This document shows, piece after piece, positions 52,634-61,647 of a stretch of DNA of 64,000 nucleotides; the first letter of the stretch is position 1, and each line of letters begins with the position of its first letter. The DNA lies in the NCBI GenBank assembly GCA_964603785.1, contig CAZRWD010000003.1:142716-206715 (forward strand), written 5' to 3'. The position numbers and the translations under genes are program-made. The stretch is from an uncultured bacterium. GTDB taxonomy: Bacteria > Fermentibacterota > Fermentibacteria > Fermentibacterales > Fermentibacteraceae. The notes beneath the pieces are model-generated. The model saw only the letters and a program-made list of their open reading frames with translations, made no database searches and was not told the DNA's origin.

Positions 52634-53254
52634 TCAGCGGTAGGAGGCCTTGACCACTCCCCAGGTGTACATGCCCTCGGTGTAGTCGTCGGGCCGGAAA
52701 TCCTCCCAGAGGCTTATCTTCCAGTAGTTGAAGTCGTCCTCCACCAGTGTGATCTTCGCCTGCCCCAGCGCGGGGTCGCCCCACTCGGCATAGCCGCTTC
52801 CGGCCACGACCATGCTGTAGTTCCGCCAGATCACCGCGCTGTCGGTGGGGGCCGGAGGATCGGGATGCTCGGGATCCAGGGAGAAGGCGACCGAGAGGAG
52901 GCTCTCCGCGGGCAGCCCGGAGCCCTGGACCGAGGCGAAGATGTTGCCGACAGTGTTCTGCTCGGAGGTCCAGTCCCAGTCGTCGAAGGAGAAGGTTCCG
53001 CCGTACTCCGCGGTGTCCGCCGGATCCGCCAGGAAGACGAACGAGGTGTCCATGCACTCCATGTAGAGGCCTATGCTGCGGGCCTCGAGCGCGCCGTCCA
53101 TGTTCAGCATGACCCTGGAGGGTGTCGTGGGGGGCTGCCAGTAGGTCTGGCCCCCACCAGGCTGCTCCGGCTCCCTGGGCTCGAAGAGCGAGCACCCCGT
53201 GGCCAGGATCCCCAGGAAGGCGGCGGTCGCGAGGCTCCTGATCTCAGAACACAT
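52634..53254 (-). CDS. Hypothetical lipoprotein
   Basis: Lipobox (AAFLGILATGC) and protein-like composition. No family recognised. Confidence 0.5.
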   Translation of the reverse strand: MCSEIRSLATAAFLGILATGCSLFEPREPEQPGGGQTYWQPPTTPSRVMLNMDGALEARSIGLYMECMDTSFVFLADPADTAEYGGTFSFDDWDWTSEQNTVGNIFASVQGSGLPAESLLSVAFSLDPEHPDPPAPTDSAVIWRNYSMVVAGSGYAEWGDPALGQAKITLVEDDFNYWKISLWEDFRPDDYTEGMYTWGVVKASYR

Positions 53255-55064
53255 AGTTGAACCCCACCGAGGCGTTCCAGTATCCGGGACGGTCGTTCGA
53301 GAACATTGTCCTGGTGATGTTCACCGTGAGGGTGCCCTCCCCGATGCCCATCCTGCTCCGAAGACCCAGGTGGTGGAGGTGCTCCTCGAGCGGGGGGGCC
53401 GAGGAGGCGAGGAAGCTGCGCTTCGAATACTCGTAGGAGTAGCTGGGGGTGACCCCCACGCTCCTGCCGATGTGGAATCCGGTGTTGAGCGTGACCGTGT
53501 TGTTGATGCTCTCCTCGGAGCGGCTGAAGAGGCCTCCGTCGAAGCTGCCCTGGTCCTGCACCCGCAGCCTGTGGCCGATGCCCAGCGTGGTGGAGTCCGG
53601 GGACATCCGCTGGAGGCTGATGCTGGAGTCCACCCTCCGGAACAGGAGGTCGCTGCCCGTCCCGGTCGATGCGGGGAACCTGAAGGTCGTGTAGTCGGCG
53701 CTCAGCTTCACCGAATGCTCGATGTCCCAGCCTCCGCCGAGGTCGTACTCGTACCCCGGGGTGAAGCTGTAGGTCGACGAGCTCTTGCTGTTCCCCGAGA
53801 GCTCGGACTTGAGGTAGACCGTCTCGAGGTTCTGTCCCTGGATGCTGGAGAGGAGCGTGAGCCGCGGTCCCACCGGGACCTCGACGTCGAGGGAGAGGAC
53901 CTCCCTCAGCTCGTCCCTGTCGCTGTTGTCCTCGTAGAGGCTGTCGCCGGGGCCGGGCCAGGAGCCCATCGTGTCGTATGTGTAGAGCTCGATGCTCCTC
54001 TGGAACACGAGCCGGGAGGCTCCCGGCATGTATGTGACGGTCGAGCTGAAGTACCGGTCGTCGGTGAGGTCGTACACGTCGAAGAGGTCCGAAGTGCCGT
54101 AGGCCGTCCTCTTCCTGTCGTTCCTGTCGATGCTCCTCGACAGCTGGAACTCGGACACGAGATTCCCGGTCATCTGCCACCGCAGGTGCCCGCCCATGGT
54201 CCTCATCCTGCCCAGCCTGTCCCTCGGGTCTCCCTGGCCGAGCGTGTCGGCCTCGTTCTCCCAGTACCTCTTGTCCCAGTTCCAGCCGGTGGAGAGCTGC
54301 ATGGACACGTCATCGAACAGGGGAGGGAGGGTCAGGACGACGTTGTGGCTCCAGTTCTGTTCGCGGTGGCTGTAGTTCGAGTCGCTGAAGGTCGTGAACA
54401 TCCTCGCGGCCGAGGCCTGGACGCCCAGCGAACCGCCCTCGAAGAGCCCGGGGAAGGAATAGTTGACCCTGGCCGTCAGGTTGTCCCTGCCGTTGTCCGT
54501 CTGCCTGCCGAGGGTCCTGTCCTCGCCGAAGGTCAGGCTGGTGCTCAGGCGCTGGAACAGGGGCTTCTGGAAGGTCACTCCCACGGTGCGGACACCCCCC
54601 TCGTCGTGGCCCCTGATGGTGGAGTCGCCCGACACGTTCTCGTAGTCGAGGTAGTGCGAGCCCAGGCTCATGGAGACCGATGCCCAGTCGAGGGGGGTGT
54701 AGCGTATCTCCCCGGCCGTGGTGTTGTTGAGCTGGTCCTGGATCAGCTCCCCGAACCTGTCCTCCCTCATGATGCTGCGCGAGATGCTCGTCGCCAGCTC
54801 GATCCTCCCGGTCGGGCGCCAGCTCACCCATGCCCGGCCCGTCCTGTTCTCCAGGAACCTGTCGAGGTCGATGCTGCGGTCGGCCCTGAACGAGGCGTCG
54901 AGGTTGATGCTCACGGTCCGGGACAGGTTCTCGACGAAGGAGAAGGTGTTGGTGAGAGCGCTCGTCTCCTTGTACTGGTCCAGCGACATGCCGTAGCCCA
55001 GGTCGTACGCCGAGGCGGGCAGGACCATCGCCAGCAGGGGGAGGGCGAGCCGCAGGTGTCTCAT
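53244..55064 (-). CDS. Outer-membrane beta-barrel protein (uncharacterised)
   Basis: Signal peptide (MRHLRLALPLLAMVLPASA). Long alternating-strand region. C-terminal aromatic residues (GFNYVF). ATGA overlap with the rsmA stop. Confidence 0.55.
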   Translation of the reverse strand: MRHLRLALPLLAMVLPASAYDLGYGMSLDQYKETSALTNTFSFVENLSRTVSINLDASFRADRSIDLDRFLENRTGRAWVSWRPTGRIELATSISRSIMREDRFGELIQDQLNNTTAGEIRYTPLDWASVSMSLGSHYLDYENVSGDSTIRGHDEGGVRTVGVTFQKPLFQRLSTSLTFGEDRTLGRQTDNGRDNLTARVNYSFPGLFEGGSLGVQASAARMFTTFSDSNYSHREQNWSHNVVLTLPPLFDDVSMQLSTGWNWDKRYWENEADTLGQGDPRDRLGRMRTMGGHLRWQMTGNLVSEFQLSRSIDRNDRKRTAYGTSDLFDVYDLTDDRYFSSTVTYMPGASRLVFQRSIELYTYDTMGSWPGPGDSLYEDNSDRDELREVLSLDVEVPVGPRLTLLSSIQGQNLETVYLKSELSGNSKSSSTYSFTPGYEYDLGGGWDIEHSVKLSADYTTFRFPASTGTGSDLLFRRVDSSISLQRMSPDSTTLGIGHRLRVQDQGSFDGGLFSRSEESINNTVTLNTGFHIGRSVGVTPSYSYEYSKRSFLASSAPPLEEHLHHLGLRSRMGIGEGTLTVNITRTMFSNDRPGYWNASVGFNYVF

Positions 55065-55873
55065 CGCACGGTCAACTCCGCAATCCGGACGAAGCCCTCG
55101 GGGGGGATCCTCTCCGCCCTCTCGGTGCTATCTATACCCGCGTCCCGCAGCACGGCGCCAGCCCCCGGACGCCCGACCAGGTCGGAGAGGTTGTTCAGTA
55201 TCGTCTTCCTCCTCTTCGAGAAGCCGGCGGCGACAACCCTCCTGAACTGGGGCAGCAGCTCCGCGGGGACGAGCGGGGCATCCCTCCTGTCGAGAACGAG
55301 TACCCTCGAGCGGACGGCCGGTTCCGGATGGAAGTCCCCGGGCTCCGCTTCCAGGAGGGGTCTGGGCGTGAAGTGGGGCCAGAGCCCCAGGGTGAGGCGC
55401 CCGTATGCCTTCCCGCCGGGGGAGGCCGCTATCCGTTCCGCGACCTCGGCCTGGAGCATGACGACGGCCCTGCGCACCTGGGAGAATGCCGGCTCGACCA
55501 GCCGCATGACCGATGGTGAGGAGATGCTGTAGGGAAGGTTCGAGGCCACGCAGGTGAACGGGCTTCCGGGCAGCAGCCGGGGATCGGTCCTCAGGAAGTC
55601 TCCCCTCACCACGACCAGCCCCCTCGCGGAGAGCGTCCTCCCCAGATGCCCGGCGAGCCGCTCGGAGATCTCCACGGCGGTCACCGACTCGCAGGTCTCG
55701 AGCAGGCGGACCGTCAGCGCGCCCAGCCCGGGCCCGATCTCGAGGGTCGGGCCGCTGCATTCGCCCGCCATCCTAGCGGCGAGCCGGTCGTTGACGAGGA
55801 AGCTCTGCCCCAGCCTCCTGTCGGGAGTTACTCCCAGCTCCGAGAGAAGCCTGGAGACCTCGGACGCCCTCAC
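55061..55873 (-). CDS. rsmA: 16S rRNA (adenine1518/1519-N6)-dimethyltransferase
   Basis: GTG start overlapping the upstream stop (GTGA at 55870-55873). KsgA motifs (LGQSFLVN, LEIGPGLGALT, ASNLPYSISSP). Confidence 0.85.
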   Translation of the reverse strand: MRASEVSRLLSELGVTPDRRLGQSFLVNDRLAARMAGECSGPTLEIGPGLGALTVRLLETCESVTAVEISERLAGHLGRTLSARGLVVVRGDFLRTDPRLLPGSPFTCVASNLPYSISSPSVMRLVEPAFSQVRRAVVMLQAEVAERIAASPGGKAYGRLTLGLWPHFTPRPLLEAEPGDFHPEPAVRSRVLVLDRRDAPLVPAELLPQFRRVVAAGFSKRRKTILNNLSDLVGRPGAGAVLRDAGIDSTERAERIPPEGFVRIAELTVR

Positions 55874-57231
55874 CCGGAACCCCTCACGGACAGCGGGAGG
55901 CCCAGACCCGCGGCAAGCGAGGCAACCGCGGGGATGTCCACGCCCTCCCAGCGCACGGCCGTCAGGCGCACCTCCCTGTCCGAAGCCTTCGCGAGCGCGA
56001 CGAACGACAGCAGGTGACCCCACGCCCCGGGGCGGGAGGGTCTGCAGGTGTTCCCGTAGGAGACCTCGTCGTGCGCATTCAGGCTGATGCTGACGGAGTC
56101 GAAGAGGGAGAGGAGCCTCGAGGCCTCCCCGGTCGACATGATGCCGGTCGCGAGCCCGTTGGTGTTGAGCCGGAGCCTCCTCCAGCCCGCCTTCCTCGCG
56201 GCCCTCGCGGCGTCCTCGAGGAGGTCCGCCCTGTCGGTGGGCTCGCCGTAGCCGCAGAAGACCAGTTCCTCGAACCCGGACGGATCGAGTCGCGAGACCG
56301 AGCCCAGGACCCTCCGGGGGGAGGGGTCTCCCGACGCGTGCCTCAGGATGTACCCTCCGAGGCCCGGTGTGCGCTCGCGGATGCAGAACTCGCAGGAGTT
56401 CGAGCATCTGCCGGTCAGGTTCACGTATGCCCGTCGGCCCAGGACGTACACGACGGCCGGCCTGAGGCCCTCCTCGAGCATGAAGGCCCTGCGGGCGTTG
56501 CTCGACAGCCGCCGCGCGGCGGAGGAGGCGTCCTCCCCGGCGATCCGGGCGGCGCATCCGATCGTGTGCACGATGAGGGCCGGCTCGCAGGTGCGCCCCC
56601 TGACGGGCTCCGGGGCCATGTAGGGGCTGTCCGTCTCCGTCAGGACGCTTCCGCGGGGCAGGCCTGCCAGGATGTCCCGCAGGTCCCGCCTCCCGGCGAA
56701 GGTGAGCGCACCGGAGAAGCTCACGAACCACCCCCTGCGGACGGCCTCCCCGGCGGGTCCGGCGGGCCCCGTGTAGCAGTGCATTATCACGGGCGAGGGG
56801 TGGTCTTCGGGCAGGACCTCCATGATCCGCCGCTCCGCGCTCCTGCTGTGCAGGACCAGGGGAAGATCGAGGTCGCGCGCCAGGCCGGCGTGCATGAGGA
56901 GCAGATCGATCTGGGCGCCTTCGGGGGGGTGCGGCTCCTTCAGGTCGAGCCCGGACTCCCCGACCGCGCAGATCCCCGGCTCGAAGCAGAGCCTCTGGAT
57001 GTCCGCGAACCGCTCCGCACCCGTGCCGGCCTCGGACGGGTGGAGACCGGCGCAGGCCAGGACGGACTCCGAGGAGCGCGCGATCCGCAGCGCCTCCCGG
57101 GAGGTCGCCTCGTCGACTCCGGGGCAGATCATCAGGGTCACGCCCGCATTCCGGGCGTTCTCCAGGACTTCTCGAAGCCTTCCGGCCAGGCCCGGCATGT
57201 AGAGGTGGCAGTGGGTGTCCACGGCTTCCAT
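55870..57231 (-). CDS. Fusion protein: TatD-family metal-dependent hydrolase plus TatD-associated radical SAM domain
   Basis: Trimmed to MEAVDTHCHL (TatD motif). TatD region of about 250 aa (VGESGLD, VLHSRSA, TDSPYMAP). C-terminal region of about 200 aa with a radical-SAM cysteine cluster (CSNSCEFC) and a glycine-rich SAM motif (FCGYGEP). Confidence 0.75.
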   Translation of the reverse strand: MEAVDTHCHLYMPGLAGRLREVLENARNAGVTLMICPGVDEATSREALRIARSSESVLACAGLHPSEAGTGAERFADIQRLCFEPGICAVGESGLDLKEPHPPEGAQIDLLLMHAGLARDLDLPLVLHSRSAERRIMEVLPEDHPSPVIMHCYTGPAGPAGEAVRRGWFVSFSGALTFAGRRDLRDILAGLPRGSVLTETDSPYMAPEPVRGRTCEPALIVHTIGCAARIAGEDASSAARRLSSNARRAFMLEEGLRPAVVYVLGRRAYVNLTGRCSNSCEFCIRERTPGLGGYILRHASGDPSPRRVLGSVSRLDPSGFEELVFCGYGEPTDRADLLEDAARAARKAGWRRLRLNTNGLATGIMSTGEASRLLSLFDSVSISLNAHDEVSYGNTCRPSRPGAWGHLLSFVALAKASDREVRLTAVRWEGVDIPAVASLAAGLGLPLSVRGSG

Positions 57232-57251
57232 GCCAGGGGGGGGCGTCGCTG

Positions 57252-58511
57252 TCAGGCGGTCCGCCAGATCACGTCCTCCCTGGAGGGTCCGGTCGAGATC
57301 AGGCGCACGGGCGCCCCGCAGGCCGTCTCGACGAACTCGACGAACCTGCGGGCCTCTGCGGGGAGGGACTCCCAGGCCCTCTCCCCCCTGATGTCGCCGC
57401 TCCATCCGGGAAGGGTCTCGTAGACCGGCCTGACCCTGTCGAGGCCGATGACGCATGAGAGGGGGTCCGTACCCCCTGCGCCCTCCCAGGAGGTCGCGAC
57501 CCTGATCACCGGCAGCCCTCCGAGCACGTCGAGCAGGGTCAGGGCGATCCAGCTCACGCCGTTGAGGAGGACGGAGTACCTCATGAGGACGAGGTCCAGC
57601 CAGCCGCAGCGCCTGGGTCTGCCGGTCGTCGCCCCGTACTCGTTGCCCCTCGTCCTGAGGTGCTCCCCCGTGGCGTCGGCGAGCTCCGAGGGGAACGGGC
57701 CGGACCCCACCCTGGTGGAGTAGGCCTTCATTATCCCGACGACCTCGGTTGCGCGCGGAGCTATCCCGAGGCCCGTGAAGGCGGCGGAGGCCGTGCAGGA
57801 GCCGGAGGTGACGAAGGGATAGGTTCCGTGGTCGGGGTCCAGGAGCGTGCCCTGGGCGCCCTCGGCGATGACCGTTCCGTCGCGGCCCAGGACGTCGCGG
57901 ATGATCCCGGGGACGTCGCCGCAGAGACCGGACAGCCTCATGGACGCCTCGAGGAACCGCCCGGACTGCGACTCGAGGTCGGCGGCGGCATCTCCGTCGA
58001 GGCCCGGGACCTCGCGGATCACCGCTTCCGACAGCGCCTCGAGCCTCCCCGGGTCGAAGGTGTCCGCGAGCCTCATGCCGGTCCTGGCGAACTTCCGGGT
58101 GTAGGCGGGGCCTATGCCGCGGCCGGTCGTGCCGATCGCCGCAGCACCCCTTGCTCGCTCCTCGGCGGCCTCCAGCAGGCGGTAGGCCGGATGGACCAGA
58201 TGCACCCCGGGGGAGACGGAGAGCCTTCCCTCGAGGGGCACGCCCATACGCGAGAGCGCATCGATCTCATCCAGCATGGCTGCGGGGTCCGCGACGCACC
58301 CCGGACCCACGAGACCCTTCACGCCGTCGTGGAGGAGGCCTGTCGGCACCTGGTGGAGGACCACTGGGCGGCCCTGGAACCTGACCGTGTGTCCGGCGTT
58401 CGCGCCGCCGGAGAACCTGGCGACCGCGGAAGCCCCTCCGGCGAGGAGGTCCACGACCTTGCCCTTGCCTTCGTCGCCCCAGCCGAGCCCGACAACCGTC
58501 ACGAGGGGCAT
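57252..58511 (-). CDS. purA: Adenylosuccinate synthetase
   Basis: P-loop GWGDEGKGK and conserved PurA regions (GPAY, TTGRPRRCGW). Confidence 0.9.
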   Translation of the reverse strand: MPLVTVVGLGWGDEGKGKVVDLLAGGASAVARFSGGANAGHTVRFQGRPVVLHQVPTGLLHDGVKGLVGPGCVADPAAMLDEIDALSRMGVPLEGRLSVSPGVHLVHPAYRLLEAAEERARGAAAIGTTGRGIGPAYTRKFARTGMRLADTFDPGRLEALSEAVIREVPGLDGDAAADLESQSGRFLEASMRLSGLCGDVPGIIRDVLGRDGTVIAEGAQGTLLDPDHGTYPFVTSGSCTASAAFTGLGIAPRATEVVGIMKAYSTRVGSGPFPSELADATGEHLRTRGNEYGATTGRPRRCGWLDLVLMRYSVLLNGVSWIALTLLDVLGGLPVIRVATSWEGAGGTDPLSCVIGLDRVRPVYETLPGWSGDIRGERAWESLPAEARRFVEFVETACGAPVRLISTGPSREDVIWRTA

Positions 58512-58539
58512 GCGAACCTCCGGGAGGCGGACTGCGGCC

Positions 58540-59796
58540 TCAGCCGGCCCGCCTTGTGCGCCTGCGCCTCCTCACCCTCTCGGGCTCGGATCCGTCACGC
58601 ACGCACTCCTCCGTCACCACGAGCCTCTTCACGGACTCCCTCTCGGAGGGGAGCATGAACATGGGCTCGAGGAGGATCCTCTCCATGATGGCCCTCAGCC
58701 CGCGGGCGCCGCTCTCCGTCTTCCTGGCCTGCCTGGCGATCTCGAGCAGGGCTCCGCGCTGGAACTCGAGCTCCACGTCCTCGAGACCGAAGAAGTACTC
58801 GTACTGACGCACGAGGGCGTTCCTCGGCTCGGTCAGCACCCTCACCAGAGCCTCCTCGTCCAGGTCGTCCAGGGCGACGAGCACGGGGAGCCGCCCGACG
58901 AGCTCCGGGATGAGACCGTAGCGCACGAGATCGTGCGACTCGGCCTGCTCCAGGATGTTCGCGGCGCCGGACGCCCGTTCCCTCCCCCGGGCTTCGGGGG
59001 CGAACCCGATGCTCGAGCGGGAGAGCCTGCGCCTGAGTATCTCCTCGAGGCCGTGGAAGGACCCGCCGCAGATGAAGAGGATGTTGGAGGTGTCGATCGG
59101 GATGTTCTCCTGGTAGGGGTGCTTCCGGCCGCCCTGGGGAGGCACGTTGGCGACCGTGCCCTCCAGTATCTTCAGGAGGGCCTGCTGCACCCCCTCGCCG
59201 GAGACGTCGCGCGTGATCGACGGGTTCTCGGACTTCCGCGAGATCTTGTCGATCTCGTCGATGTAGATGATCCCCTGCTGGGCCCTCTGGACGTCCATTC
59301 CGGTCACGTGGAGCAGGCGGAGCAGGATGTTCTCGACGTCCTCCCCGACGTAGCCGGCCTCGGTGAGCGTTGTCGCGTCGGCTATCGCGAACGGCACGTC
59401 GAGTATCCTGGCCAGGGTCCGGGCCAGGAGGGTCTTGCCCACGCCCGTGGGGCCGAGCAGGAGGACGTTGCTCTTCTCTATCTCCACGCCGACCTCGGGG
59501 TCCTCGGCCGCCCTGAGCCTCTTGTAGTGGTTGTAGACGGCAACGGAGAGCACCCGCTTAGCCCTCTCCTGGCCTATGACGTACTCGTCCAGACGCTTCT
59601 TGATCTCCTCGGGGAGGGGGAGGGGTGTGTCGGGCCGGACATCCCTGGCCGCCCCGCCCTCCGATGGCTTCTCCTCGAGCAGGTCGAAGCAGTAGCGGAC
59701 ACACTCGTCGCAGATGCTGACCCCGGGGCCCTGGATGATCCTCGCGACCTCGCCGGCGGCCCTGTTGCAGAACGAGCACTTCCCCGTGCGTGCCAC
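58540..59796 (-). CDS. clpX: ATP-dependent Clp protease ATP-binding subunit ClpX
   Basis: Zinc-finger ([11 protein letters not shown]...CDEC), Walker A GPTGVGKT, and the ClpX IGF-loop region. Confidence 0.9.
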
Positions 59797-59802
59797 GGCC
59801 CG

Positions 59803-60424
59803 CTACTTCCCGGCCTTGAGGACGTTGTCCACCAGACCGTAGGCGATCGCCTCGGGGGCGTCCATCCAGAAGTTGCGGTCGGTGTCCTCCTCGATCTTCC
59901 CGATGGGCTGGCCCGTGTGATGGGAGAGGAGCTCGTTGAGCTCCCTGCGGAGCTTGATGATCTCCCTGGCCTCGATCTCGATGTCGCTGGCCTGGCCCTG
60001 CACGCCCCCCATGGGCTGGTGGAGCATCACCCGGGCGTGGGGCAGGATGTTCCTCTTGCCCTTCGTCCCGGCGGAGAGCAGCAGCGCGGCCATGCTCGCG
60101 GCGGAGCCGAGGCAGAAGGTGGCGACGTCGGGCCTTATGAACCTCATGGTGTCGTAGATGGCGAGACCGGCGGAGACTATGCCGCCCGGGCTGTTGATGT
60201 ACATGCTGATGTCCCTCTCGGGGTCCTCGCCCGCCAGGAACAGGAGCTGTGCGACCACGACGCTCGCGCTCGTGTTCGTTATCGCGTCGCCGAGGAAGAC
60301 TATCCTCTCCTTGAGGAGCCGGGAGTAGATGTCGTAGGACCTCTCGGTGTTGCCGACCCTCTCAACCACGAACGGAATTATCGACAAGGGGGCTCTCCCT
60401 TCGGTCGGACCCTCATGCACCATC
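59803..60424 (-). CDS. clpP: ATP-dependent Clp protease proteolytic subunit
   Basis: ClpP signature ([18 protein letters not shown]...YINSPGG...[11 protein letters not shown]...MLHQP). Confidence 0.9.
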
Positions 60425-61647
60425 GGCCGCGGCCCACTTCCAGTTCGCGTCCGAGTCCTCATGGACGGAAACCGGCCCGGCGGGGGCCGACTCCACAACC
60501 TTCGCCTTCGAGAGGACGTATTCCAGCGCCCTCCGGTTCCTGACCCTGTCCAGGGCCGACGAGGAGGAGGCGCCGGACGACTTCTCGGCCTCCAGCTCCC
60601 CGGGGGTCGGCACGATGCCCTCCCTGATCCCGACGGCGCGGAGCGCTATGAACTCGCGGACCTTCCGGAGGGCTATCTCGCTGATGGCCCTGTCGGTTCC
60701 CTCGTCCCGCCCGCCCTCCAGATTCCTCGCGAAGTCGCCGGCCAGGTTCTCTACCATGTAGCCGGGTGGATCGAAGGGGTTCCTCTCGAGGATGGCGTCG
60801 AGGGCCTGGCGTTCGAGCTCGTCCGCCCTGTCGCGCTCCCACCTGGCCTCCAGCCGCTTGCGCAGCAGGGCCTTGAATTCCCCGAGATCCGGGCAGTCGC
60901 CCGCCTTCCTGGCGAACTCGTCGTCGACCTCGGGCAGCAGGGGCTCTCGCACCTCCATGAGCCTGAAGGTTGTGGGCCTGCCCTTCTCCTCGGTCTCGCC
61001 GGAGCGGAACTCTATCCTGGCCGTGACGGATGCCCCTGCGGAGAGACCGGTGAGCAGGTCGTCCAGCCCGGGGCCGAGATCGGACCCGCCCAGCCTCAGG
61101 GCCATGCGCTCGGGCTCGGAGCCGGGATCGGCGTCGGGGCGCACGACCTCGAGGAGCACGAGATCGCGGTCCGCGGAGGGCCTGTCGGTCCTCCTGTAGT
61201 CGACCATCTTCCAGCGGATGCTCTCGATCATCCTTTCGACGGCCTCGTCGGGATCGAAGCGGGGGATCGACAGCTCGAGGCCCTCGTACCCCTCGGGGTT
61301 CGGGATCTCGAAGAGGTCGAAGGTGATCTCGAAGACGTAGTCCTCCCCCTCGACGGGAAGCTCGTCGCCCGGGGCGGGCCTGCTGCCGGACAGGACCCAG
61401 TCCTGCTCGTCGAGCATCCTCACGGTAAGCTGCTCGCGGATGTCCTCCGCGACCTCGGAGCGTATCAGGTTCCCGTAGCGCTGGTCGAGCACCGAGCGGG
61501 GGACCCGCCCGGGCCTGAATCCGGGCAGCCTGAGGTCCCTGTTTATCCTGCTCCTCACCCTGTCGTAGATGCCGCGCACCTCGGCGGCTCCCGCGTGGAA
61601 GCGCACCGTCCTGCTGGTTCCGGATCCGTCGAGTATCTCGTATTCCA
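60413..61647 (-). CDS. tig: Trigger factor
   Basis: Trimmed to [17 protein letters not shown]. The upstream part of the track ORF reads through the tRNA gene. The tig-clpP-clpX synteny supports the call. Confidence 0.8.

Follow-up and report, generated by a model that had tools for sequence, protein, structure and literature searches.

A TatD hydrolase joined in frame to a TIGR04038 radical SAM domain in a Fermentibacteria-like anaerobe: a common bacterial fusion that may act on nucleic-acid 3′ ends

Group II TatD enzymes are defined by an HxH motif (PMC10085689), and those of the YcfH/YabD/DTD3 type fold as a TIM barrel (PDB codes 1yix, 2gzx and 6l25). E. coli YcfH has both 3′-exonuclease and AP-endonuclease activity (PMC10085689), and YcfH/DTD3 proteins hydrolyse D-aminoacyl-tRNA according to PMC10711561, which cites Wydau 2009. 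In this literature, the Mg2+-dependent nuclease and D-aminoacyl-tRNA deacylase activities are established for E. coli YcfH only. The characterised YcfH-type enzymes of E. coli, S. aureus and Synechocystis do not carry a C-terminal radical SAM domain, unlike the protein described here, in which a TatD hydrolase is followed by a radical SAM domain of the ‘TatD-associated’ family TIGR04038 (IPR023821, ‘TatD family nuclease-associated radical SAM protein’). A literature search for TIGR04038/IPR023821 returned a single passing mention, in a preprint about clustering methods, and no experimental or functional study. To our knowledge, spore photoproduct lyase is the sole established radical SAM enzyme of DNA repair. 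We use it as a mechanistic analogy only and claim no membership for the TatD-radical SAM protein; the lyase differs in size and motifs, and its structure (PDB code 4fhc) is a far weaker match than generic radical SAM cores.

The gene lies on the minus strand of a 64,000-nt stretch of contig CAZRWD010000003.1 (the window, to which all coordinates refer), in the operon order purA, TatD-radical SAM gene, rsmA and a gene for a 606-aa secreted protein. The features are as follows.

55061..55873, minus strand: rsmA, 16S rRNA dimethyltransferase (TIGR00755, 184.5 bits, cutoff 171)
55870..57231, minus strand: TatD-radical SAM gene, 453 codons plus TGA, with the ATG at 57231 (product begins MEAVDTHCH)
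55882..56454, minus strand: TIGR04038 ‘TatD-associated’ radical SAM domain, aa 260–450
56239..56262, minus strand: VFCGYGEP in the sequence, a GGE-type SAM-binding motif with an extra cysteine, Cys326
56383..56406, minus strand: CX3CX2C motif for the [4Fe-4S]/SAM cluster in the sequence, C276-S-N-S-C280-E-F-C283
56455..56481, minus strand: interdomain linker, aa 251–259 (about 9 residues), the gap between the Pfam and NCBIfam envelopes
56482..57222, minus strand: TatD hydrolase domain, YcfH/YabD-type, Group II HxH, aa 4–250 (PF01026)
57205..57213, minus strand: HxH metal-binding motif H7-C8-H9 in the translation, nearly invariant in 73 fused homologues
57252..58511, minus strand: purA, adenylosuccinate synthase (NF002223, 461 bits, cutoff 402)

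The end of purA lies 20 nt upstream of the start of the fusion gene, whose TGA overlaps the GTG start of rsmA by 4 nt (GTGA), an arrangement also present in independent gene calls, which suggests translational coupling of the two. A longer, 528-aa open reading frame from 57456 was rejected: it overlaps purA by about 200 nt, the homologues start at xxxDTHCH, and independent calls give 453 aa. The sequence-only reading had described a single 453-aa polypeptide between rsmA and purA, with a complete TatD hydrolase followed in frame by a radical SAM module. The profiles agree on each point, as PF01026 and TIGR04038 identify the two halves, TIGR00755 and NF002223 the two neighbours, and the motifs that it had quoted are all found in the translation (in DTHCH, AVGESGLD, ETDSPY, RCSNSCEFC and VFCGYGEP).

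The TatD half scores 205.8 bits against PF01026 (TatD_DNase; cutoff 27) and covers profile positions 1–252 of 253 with aa 4–250. The NCBIfam model TIGR00010 (YchF/TatD family DNA exonuclease) is covered in full at 197.5 bits, just under its cutoff of 206. In an alignment of the 73 fused homologues, Glu92, His128, His151 and Asp201 are invariant, while Asp5, His7 and His9 are nearly so. The ligands (HxH, Glu, His, His, Asp) and a PxPxRGxxxEP motif are in register with YcfH; S. aureus YcfH aligns with this half from end to end, and E. coli YcfH is a full-length match. A Foldseek comparison of the modelled TatD half with 6l25, 1yix, 2gzx and 1j6o yielded TMt values of 0.88–0.94 and r.m.s.d. values of 1.5–2.0 Å, which places it, at a TM of about 0.9, with the Group II barrels named above. 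The metG/holB/rsmA synteny typical of yabD and ycfH is likewise common to TatD-radical SAM loci. Judged from its sequence, the domain is complete, with the catalytic residues all kept, and we assign it to the housekeeping YcfH/YabD type.

The C-terminal half scores 154.3 bits against TIGR04038 (cutoff 129.7), with aa 260–450 covering profile positions 2–189 of 192, and aa 270–419 match PF04055 (Radical_SAM) at 50.5 bits, over the gathering score. It has the partial TIM-barrel fold of radical SAM enzymes and corresponds to a minimal core that lacks any auxiliary-cluster or substrate-binding extension. The three cluster cysteines are invariant in the 73 fused and 66 mostly standalone sequences. 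The VFCGYGEP motif, including Cys326, is invariant in all three alignments (A1, A2 and A3), and so are the RxNTNG and SLN motifs, which are also present here. The set that is invariant in over 130 diverse sequences comprises the cluster cysteines, the GGE-type motif, NTNG, SLN, the extra cysteine and tyrosine residues. Every invariant motif is common to this protein and to the standalone and fused members of TIGR04038/IPR023821, which includes the sub-clade TIGR04100 (‘rSAM_pair_X’). By profile and motifs, and by its link to a TatD hydrolase, the protein is a member of the family as a whole, and at 130.9 bits it misses the TIGR04100 cutoff of 262. Most of the TIGR04038 members tested score between 199 and 291 bits, and the lower score of this fused member is due to divergence in Fermentibacteria.

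Similarity to radical SAM proteins of known structure is remote. A sequence search of the PDB with the domain returned nothing significant (best E-value 0.05), and identity to the minimal cores of pyruvate formate-lyase activating enzyme (3c8f), viperin (5vsl) and QueE (5tgs) is only 16–18%. The domain differs from these cores by the extra invariant cysteine within its GGE motif; in addition, no glycyl-radical partner is present here, and the protein stays below the family cutoffs for viperin and QueE. The best Foldseek matches of the radical SAM half were viperin in complex with CTP, TYW1, BlsE and RlmN, which act on nucleotides or RNA. The isoelectric point of the domain is 8.98 in this protein, with a median of 7.8 in fused forms compared to 5.4 in standalone ones.

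Split tatD-radical SAM pairs with gaps of 8–33 nt exist in some Firmicutes, so that a one-base error could in principle fuse two adjacent genes. We found no support for a sequencing or assembly error of this kind, and its probability here is negligible. At least four runs (ERR4539292, ERR4534290, ERR4519286 and SRR30104882), assembled independently of one another, gave contigs with the identical 453-aa protein, and the ERR4519286 contig was seen in 10 samples. The reading frame continues unbroken across the junction, and the two halves share the same codon bias, with GC3 values of 0.92 (TatD) and 0.91 (radical SAM). Measured between HMM ends, the linker is 3–7 residues long in all 42 fused loci, a length kept across species representatives from more than eight phyla. 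An AF2 model of the whole protein, with a pLDDT of 96.6 and a pTM of 0.93, also predicts the junction with confidence, the linker block dipping to 89 at the lowest point. The independent contigs, the conserved linker and the codon bias together rule out a frameshift or an assembly artefact.

The sequence-only reading had further taken the radical SAM protein to be normally a separate gene next to tatD. A survey of fused and split forms does not bear out this premise. In 80 species-representative loci, the two domains are fused in 42, whereas a separate tatD is adjacent in seven and lies 3.7 kb away in one more. In the seven split loci, tatD is immediately upstream on the same strand, always in the order tatD then radical SAM, with gaps of 8–279 nt. 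The radical SAM gene is unlinked to any tatD in about 26–30 of the 80 loci, and proximity to tatD is therefore not general. An exhaustive domain-only profile search gave a similar picture for representatives of 50%-identity clusters: 75 of the 146 newly returned among the top 150 carry TatD and radical SAM domains together, and 65 are standalone. The ratio of fused to split forms is drawn from these two samples, and not from a domain-only word-index search, which listed only proteins of 179–336 aa, with the full-length fused ones absent. The best 120 matches to the full-length protein were all fused. Fused loci span Fermentibacteria, Nitrospirota, Aquificota, Omnitrophota, Brocadiales and others; the radical SAM family as a whole comprises 576 clusters at E ≤ 1e-30 from many phyla, and a scan with the VFCGYGEP pattern found at least 598 loci, mostly in anaerobes and microaerophiles. 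The fusion is thus common in anaerobic bacteria, and its architecture is already known and catalogued: fused proteins are deposited in public databases under names such as ‘Putative TatD-related deoxyribonuclease with Radical SAM domain’, and in NCBIfam the type of TIGR04038 is ‘subfamily_domain’, which makes it a domain model. The names given to fused members in databases often cover the TatD half only (‘YchF/TatD family DNA exonuclease’), a minor weakness of annotation.

For the genomic context we used recurrent and profile-confirmed neighbours only, as ORF-based calling in high-GC loci gave spurious antisense ORFs (cluster c1). The recurrent order is HolB-PSP1-MetG-[TatD-rSAM]-RsmA, and in Firmicutes MetG-TatD-rSAM-YabE(G5/3D)-...-RsmA. 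A tree of the radical SAM domain follows taxonomy. In seven loci from Lachnospiraceae, Acutalibacteraceae, other Clostridia and Acidaminococcus, a standalone copy lies downstream of a pyridoxamine kinase (NF005491, 278 bits) and a TIGR04002/PF07155 protein. These kinase-adjacent copies intermingle in the tree with TatD-adjacent ones, one of which passes the TIGR04100 cutoff. The domain is also found fused to an ECF-transporter S component (P0343), a GGACT domain (P0334) and an exporter-like ArAE/FUSC membrane domain (P0383), each of these being a single cluster representative with gene calls as given. Considering all of the above, we are almost certain that this is a true housekeeping gene on the chromosome of a Fermentibacteria-like anaerobe, that it encodes a rigid two-domain enzyme, TatD plus a minimal radical SAM core, and that the fused form is of ancient origin, passed on vertically and about equal in frequency to the split one.

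The physical and functional coupling of the two activities that the sequence-only reading had proposed is well supported by the fusion itself, the same gene order in the seven split loci, the short and constant linker, and the pTM of 0.93. As to what is coupled, our best guess, which falls somewhat short of probable, is that radical chemistry and hydrolysis are directed at a nucleic acid, with both active sites acting on the same 3′ end. Candidate targets would be a tRNA or RNA 3′ terminus, a damaged DNA 3′ end or an abasic site. Reductive cleavage of SAM by the radical SAM domain would give a 5′-deoxyadenosyl radical, which would take a hydrogen atom from a terminal nucleotide or adduct beyond the reach of hydrolysis alone; the two-metal site of TatD would next break the ester or phosphodiester bond. 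The protein may thus serve as an oxygen-sensitive accessory to YcfH/YabD-type 3′-end processing or proofreading that is kept in anaerobes and microaerophiles. The YcfH activities, the neighbours from translation, rRNA modification and replication, the Foldseek matches and the charge of the radical SAM domain all point to a nucleic-acid substrate, the difference in charge between fused and standalone forms being a weak pointer; the ECF-S, GGACT and exporter-like fusions of the same domain count against it.

These same fusions favour a serious rival, although on balance a rather unlikely one, in which successive reactions of the TatD-fold amidohydrolase and the radical SAM domain would convert a small metabolite that is salvaged or detoxified, for example a nucleoside, a nucleotide or a compound of vitamin type, and not a nucleic acid. 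The unlinked standalone copies beside pyridoxamine kinase and TIGR04002 suggest that some members of the family, at least, act on a small molecule; the mixing of such copies in the tree with TatD-adjacent ones, including the one above the TIGR04100 cutoff, favours the same reading, and the radical SAM half also weakly matches the profiles of MoaA and viperin, enzymes whose substrates are free NTPs. In addition, normal growth has been reported for E. coli that lacks every one of its three TatD paralogues (PMC10085689), which leaves YcfH without a settled substrate in the cell. This has to be set against the nuclease and aminoacyl-tRNA deacylase activities demonstrated for YcfH-type enzymes, against the location of TatD-linked forms among metG, rsmA, holB and PSP1 and not among metabolic genes, and against the fact that each non-TatD fusion is a lone cluster representative.

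Two further explanations give the radical SAM half a different part. Through its [4Fe-4S] cluster and SAM binding, it might be a sensor of redox state, oxygen or SAM that switches the TatD nuclease on or off and leaves the substrate unmodified, as would suit a minimal domain without extensions, its distribution in mostly anaerobes and microaerophiles, and the argument in PMC10085689 that TatD exonuclease activity in cells probably needs regulation. However, the full catalytic motif set is invariant across the diverse sequences aligned, which is typical of an active radical SAM enzyme, and the domain also occurs alone and with unrelated partners, so that we consider a sensor improbable. An anti-phage module, with a viperin-like radical SAM enzyme as the source of a chain-terminating nucleotide and a QatD-like TatD nuclease coupled to it, is very improbable. 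Structurally, viperins rank among the closest matches, and weak similarity is detected both to QatD (51 bits in PADLOC, 64.8 bits in NCBIfam) and to prokaryotic viperin (18 bits in PADLOC, about 13 bits in NCBIfam), but the NCBIfam scores are far below the respective cutoffs (64.8 against 230 and 13.4 against 180). Moreover, the gene belongs to a conserved, vertically inherited housekeeping operon (purA, rsmA, metG, holB) and not to a defence island, and none of the phage records searched has the TatD-radical SAM architecture. Together, the scores, context and phage records effectively refute membership in the Qat or prokaryotic viperin families.

Taken as a sequence observation, the fusion changes little, since the architecture is widespread, deposited and covered by a domain model. 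What it still has to offer is a hint at a gap in enzymology, with about half of a conserved radical SAM family welded to a little-understood housekeeping hydrolase of the YcfH/YabD type. A bolder reading of the nucleic-acid mechanism, which we put forward as doubtful, is that this hydrolase became part of a so far undescribed radical-based repair or proofreading enzyme with a core function in anaerobic bacteria, whose radical would unblock or reverse a terminal tRNA or DNA lesion or adduct for YcfH-type hydrolysis at the 3′ end. If true, radical SAM enzymes would count a second nucleic-acid repair activity besides that of spore photoproduct lyase, and the reading would hold for TIGR04038 as a whole and not for this window specifically. 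With a linker that is short and constant and a packing that the model predicts to be rigid, the fused proteins should lend themselves well to structural and biochemical studies, which could also clarify whether the physiological substrate of YcfH-type enzymes is DNA ends and AP sites or D-aminoacyl-tRNA.

A single 453-codon ORF encodes a TatD hydrolase followed by a radical SAM (rSAM) domain, as the sequence-only reading had described, and every motif quoted in that reading is found in the translated ORF:

55870..57231, reverse strand: TatD-rSAM fusion gene, 453-codon ORF, MEAVDTHCH...SVRGSG*
Residues 4-250: TatD_DNase (PF01026), full-length Pfam match, 205.8 bits
Residues 270-419: Radical_SAM (PF04055), Pfam match, 50.5 bits
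Residues 260-450: TIGR04038, 'TatD family nuclease-associated radical SAM protein' (NCBIfam), 154.3 bits, above the cutoff of 129.7

The NCBIfam model TIGR00010 (YchF/TatD) scores 197.5 bits on the protein, slightly below its cutoff of 206. The described position between rsmA (TIGR00755, 184.5 bits) and purA (NF002223, 461 bits) was confirmed, with clpX and clpP located past purA. Because a gap of 20 nt separates the end of purA from the ATG of the fusion gene, the TGA of the latter shares bases with the GTG of rsmA (GTGA), and rsmA overlaps the gene after it by 4 nt, the fusion gene belongs to a tightly packed operon. The gene starting within the end of rsmA (53244..55064, reverse strand) encodes a 606-aa protein whose N-terminus resembles a signal peptide and whose C-terminus (...GFNYVF) resembles that of an outer-membrane β-barrel; it returned no match in Pfam or NCBIfam, and is kept directly downstream in seven Fermentibacteria-type loci (cluster 4). 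In the Fermentibacteria relatives L003-L006, a gene for the ribosome-biogenesis GTPase YsxC/EngB lies between clpX and purA (cluster 18; TIGR03598, 190 bits); it is absent from this position in the window, where the spacing is only ~28 nt (58511..58540). Three long forward-strand ORFs opposite real genes (53199..55532, 56014..57423 and 58276..60543; 777, 469 and 755 aa) were attributed to the high G+C content (67.7% overall; GC3 ~0.92) and rejected as genes.

The reading frame is unbroken across the domain junction, and GC3 is 0.92 in the TatD half and 0.91 in the rSAM half. The identical 453-aa protein, intact and flanked by matching gene calls, was found on independently assembled contigs from four runs (ERR4539292, ERR4534290, ERR4519286 and SRR30104882), the ERR4519286 contig being present in 10 samples. 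In dozens of unrelated genomes with the TatD-rSAM architecture, moreover, the ends of the domain models lie 3-7 residues apart. Together these observations rule out a sequencing or assembly error, the chance of an artefactual fusion being negligible, and for the frameshift question recurrence across assemblies is stronger evidence than reads mapped to a single assembly could be.

The fusion had been presented as an exception to a normally separate gene, which the census refutes. All of the best 120 database matches to the full protein are ~450 aa long and carry both Pfam domains; they derive from Fermentibacteria, Thermodesulfovibrionales/Nitrospirae, magnetotactic Nitrospirota, Omnitrophica, Zixibacteria and Magnetococcus. 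Many of these homologues are named just 'YchF/TatD family DNA exonuclease' or 'TatD family hydrolase', and a few just 'TatD family nuclease-associated radical SAM protein', names that cover one of the two domains only. A scan for the VFCGYGEP pattern, using one genome per GTDB species, gave at least 598 confirmed loci, the best 80 of which were sorted with HMMs built for this analysis: 42 are fused; in seven, tatD directly precedes the rSAM gene in the same orientation (gaps of 8-279 nt); one has tatD 3.7 kb away; and 30 lack tatD at the locus, four of these ending close to the rSAM gene. Fused forms also occur in Aquificota (including an Aquifex aeolicus MAG), Brocadiales, Geobacteraceae, Terriglobia, Nitrospinota and Verrucomicrobiota. 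As the 80 loci are those most similar to a fused query, they lean towards fused forms. A less biased estimate comes from an exhaustive HMMER run whose profile was balanced and covered the rSAM domain only. Clustered at 50% identity, its matches form 576 clusters with E ≤ 1e-30 and 1712 with E ≤ 1e-10. Of the top 150 representatives, 146 were newly returned: 59 of these carry full TatD and rSAM domains, 16 are N-truncated fragments of this architecture, and 65 are standalone. The fused form thus makes up about half of the family's diversity. A neighbour-joining tree of the rSAM domains tracks organism taxonomy, with fused clades (Fermentibacteria; Aquificota; a large Nitrospirota/Omnitrophota/Planctomycetota group) around mostly Firmicutes split forms, which fits an ancient fusion or fission and vertical descent.

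The TatD half aligns end to end with Staphylococcus aureus YcfH (2gzx, 6l25) and matches Escherichia coli YcfH (1yix) along its whole length, with the DTHxH, GExGLD, HxR, MHx and ETDxPY motifs in register; its model superposes on these structures with a TM-score of ~0.9. Genes that recur beside the fused and adjacent forms encode MetG, HolB (DNA polymerase III δ'), a PSP1-domain protein and RsmA, and in Firmicutes also a G5/3D YabE-like protein, in agreement with the Bacillus subtilis holB-ricT...metS-yabD-yabE-rnmV-ksgA arrangement. This identifies the TatD domain as the housekeeping YcfH/YabD orthologue, as opposed to a defence or secreted nuclease. It falls in the HxH 'Group II' clade of PMC10085689. 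E. coli YcfH is a 3'-exonuclease on ssDNA and an AP-endonuclease on dsDNA, and a triple tatD/yjjV/ycfH knockout is H2O2-sensitive with otherwise normal growth (PMC10085689). According to PMC10711561, citing Wydau et al. 2009, the TatD-family protein DTD3 of Synechocystis deacylates D-aminoacyl-tRNA and is nearest to YcfH, which has this activity too.

In the rSAM half, Y-x-N-x-T-x-x-C-x3-C-x-F-C, R-x-N-T-N-G, S-L-N, a C-terminal Arg and VFCGYGEP with its extra Cys are invariant across fused and standalone members. No solved structure is related to the domain by sequence (best E 0.05). AlphaFold gave a pLDDT of 96.6 and a pTM of 0.93 for the full protein and a pLDDT of 95.5 for the rSAM domain alone; the high two-domain pTM implies a fixed interdomain packing in the predicted structure. 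The best radical SAM matches in Foldseek were viperin-like enzymes with CTP, followed by TYW1, BlsE and RlmN. The domain lacks auxiliary-cluster and substrate-binding extensions, which makes it a minimal radical SAM core, and fold comparison revealed no substrate. TIGR04038 and TIGR04100 describe a single, continuous family: each of ten members tested exceeds the TIGR04038 cutoff, and a TatD-adjacent copy (MetG-TatD-rSAM; L034, 3645-4241) reaches 270, above the 262 required by the TIGR04100 'hypothetical equivalog' model. The two NCBIfam models do not separate cleanly.

A two-metal hydrolase site and a SAM/[4Fe-4S] site, both intact, share one rigid polypeptide and are kept under selection in a housekeeping context. 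Quite possibly both act on one nucleic-acid 3' end, in tRNA/RNA or damaged DNA: 5'-deoxyadenosyl-radical chemistry would prepare or reverse a terminal lesion or adduct, and the TatD site would then hydrolyse it. In fused proteins the rSAM domain has a neutral to basic median pI of 7.8 (8.98 in this protein), against an acidic 5.4 for standalone copies; the TatD domain, family-wide, is acidic (median 5.85). The charge difference of the rSAM domain faintly favours a nucleic-acid substrate.

A two-step small-molecule pathway, a less probable but serious rival, draws on other partners of the domain. As called in the database, it is joined to an ECF-transporter S component (PF07155; protein P0343), a GGACT (γ-glutamyl-cyclotransferase-like) domain (P0334) and an ArAE/FUSC exporter-like membrane domain (P0383), fusions that may be 'Rosetta stone' pointers towards a small molecule as substrate. 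Standalone rSAM genes adjoin a pyridoxamine kinase gene (NF005491, 278 bits) in seven loci (L040 4348-5582, L049 2077-4120, L062, L072, L074, L058 and L076) of Lachnospiraceae, Acutalibacteraceae, other Clostridia and Acidaminococcus, in five of them directly downstream of a TIGR04002/PF07155 S-component-like membrane protein on one strand throughout. A second conserved context, in Acetobacterium and a Lachnospiraceae MAG (L027, L032, L037, L045), has the order arylsulfotransferase (ASST)-like, ArsC/glutaredoxin-like, rSAM, UPF0489-domain and a 278-aa protein without a family match. Such fusions and gene neighbourhoods suggest that at least some of the rSAM family acts on a small molecule. That the domain serves as a redox/SAM-sensing regulator seems improbable, and an anti-phage module is very improbable, given scores far under the QatD and pVip cutoffs and the housekeeping context; no phage record showed the TatD-rSAM architecture.

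Inferring functional coupling from the fusion is justified, though not novel. NCBI-derived collections already include this very protein, fused members are numerous, some explicitly named as such, and one UniRef/NCBI entry is titled 'Putative TatD-related deoxyribonuclease with Radical SAM domain'. The TIGRFAMs/InterPro family description itself presumably mentions adjacency or fusion to TatD. Family entries exist as NCBIfam TIGR04038 (typed 'subfamily_domain') and InterPro IPR023821, the latter mentioned in bioRxiv 10.1101/2024.11.19.624229. The architecture was therefore read correctly and is ordinary and already catalogued; what remains of interest is solely the reaction of the rSAM family.
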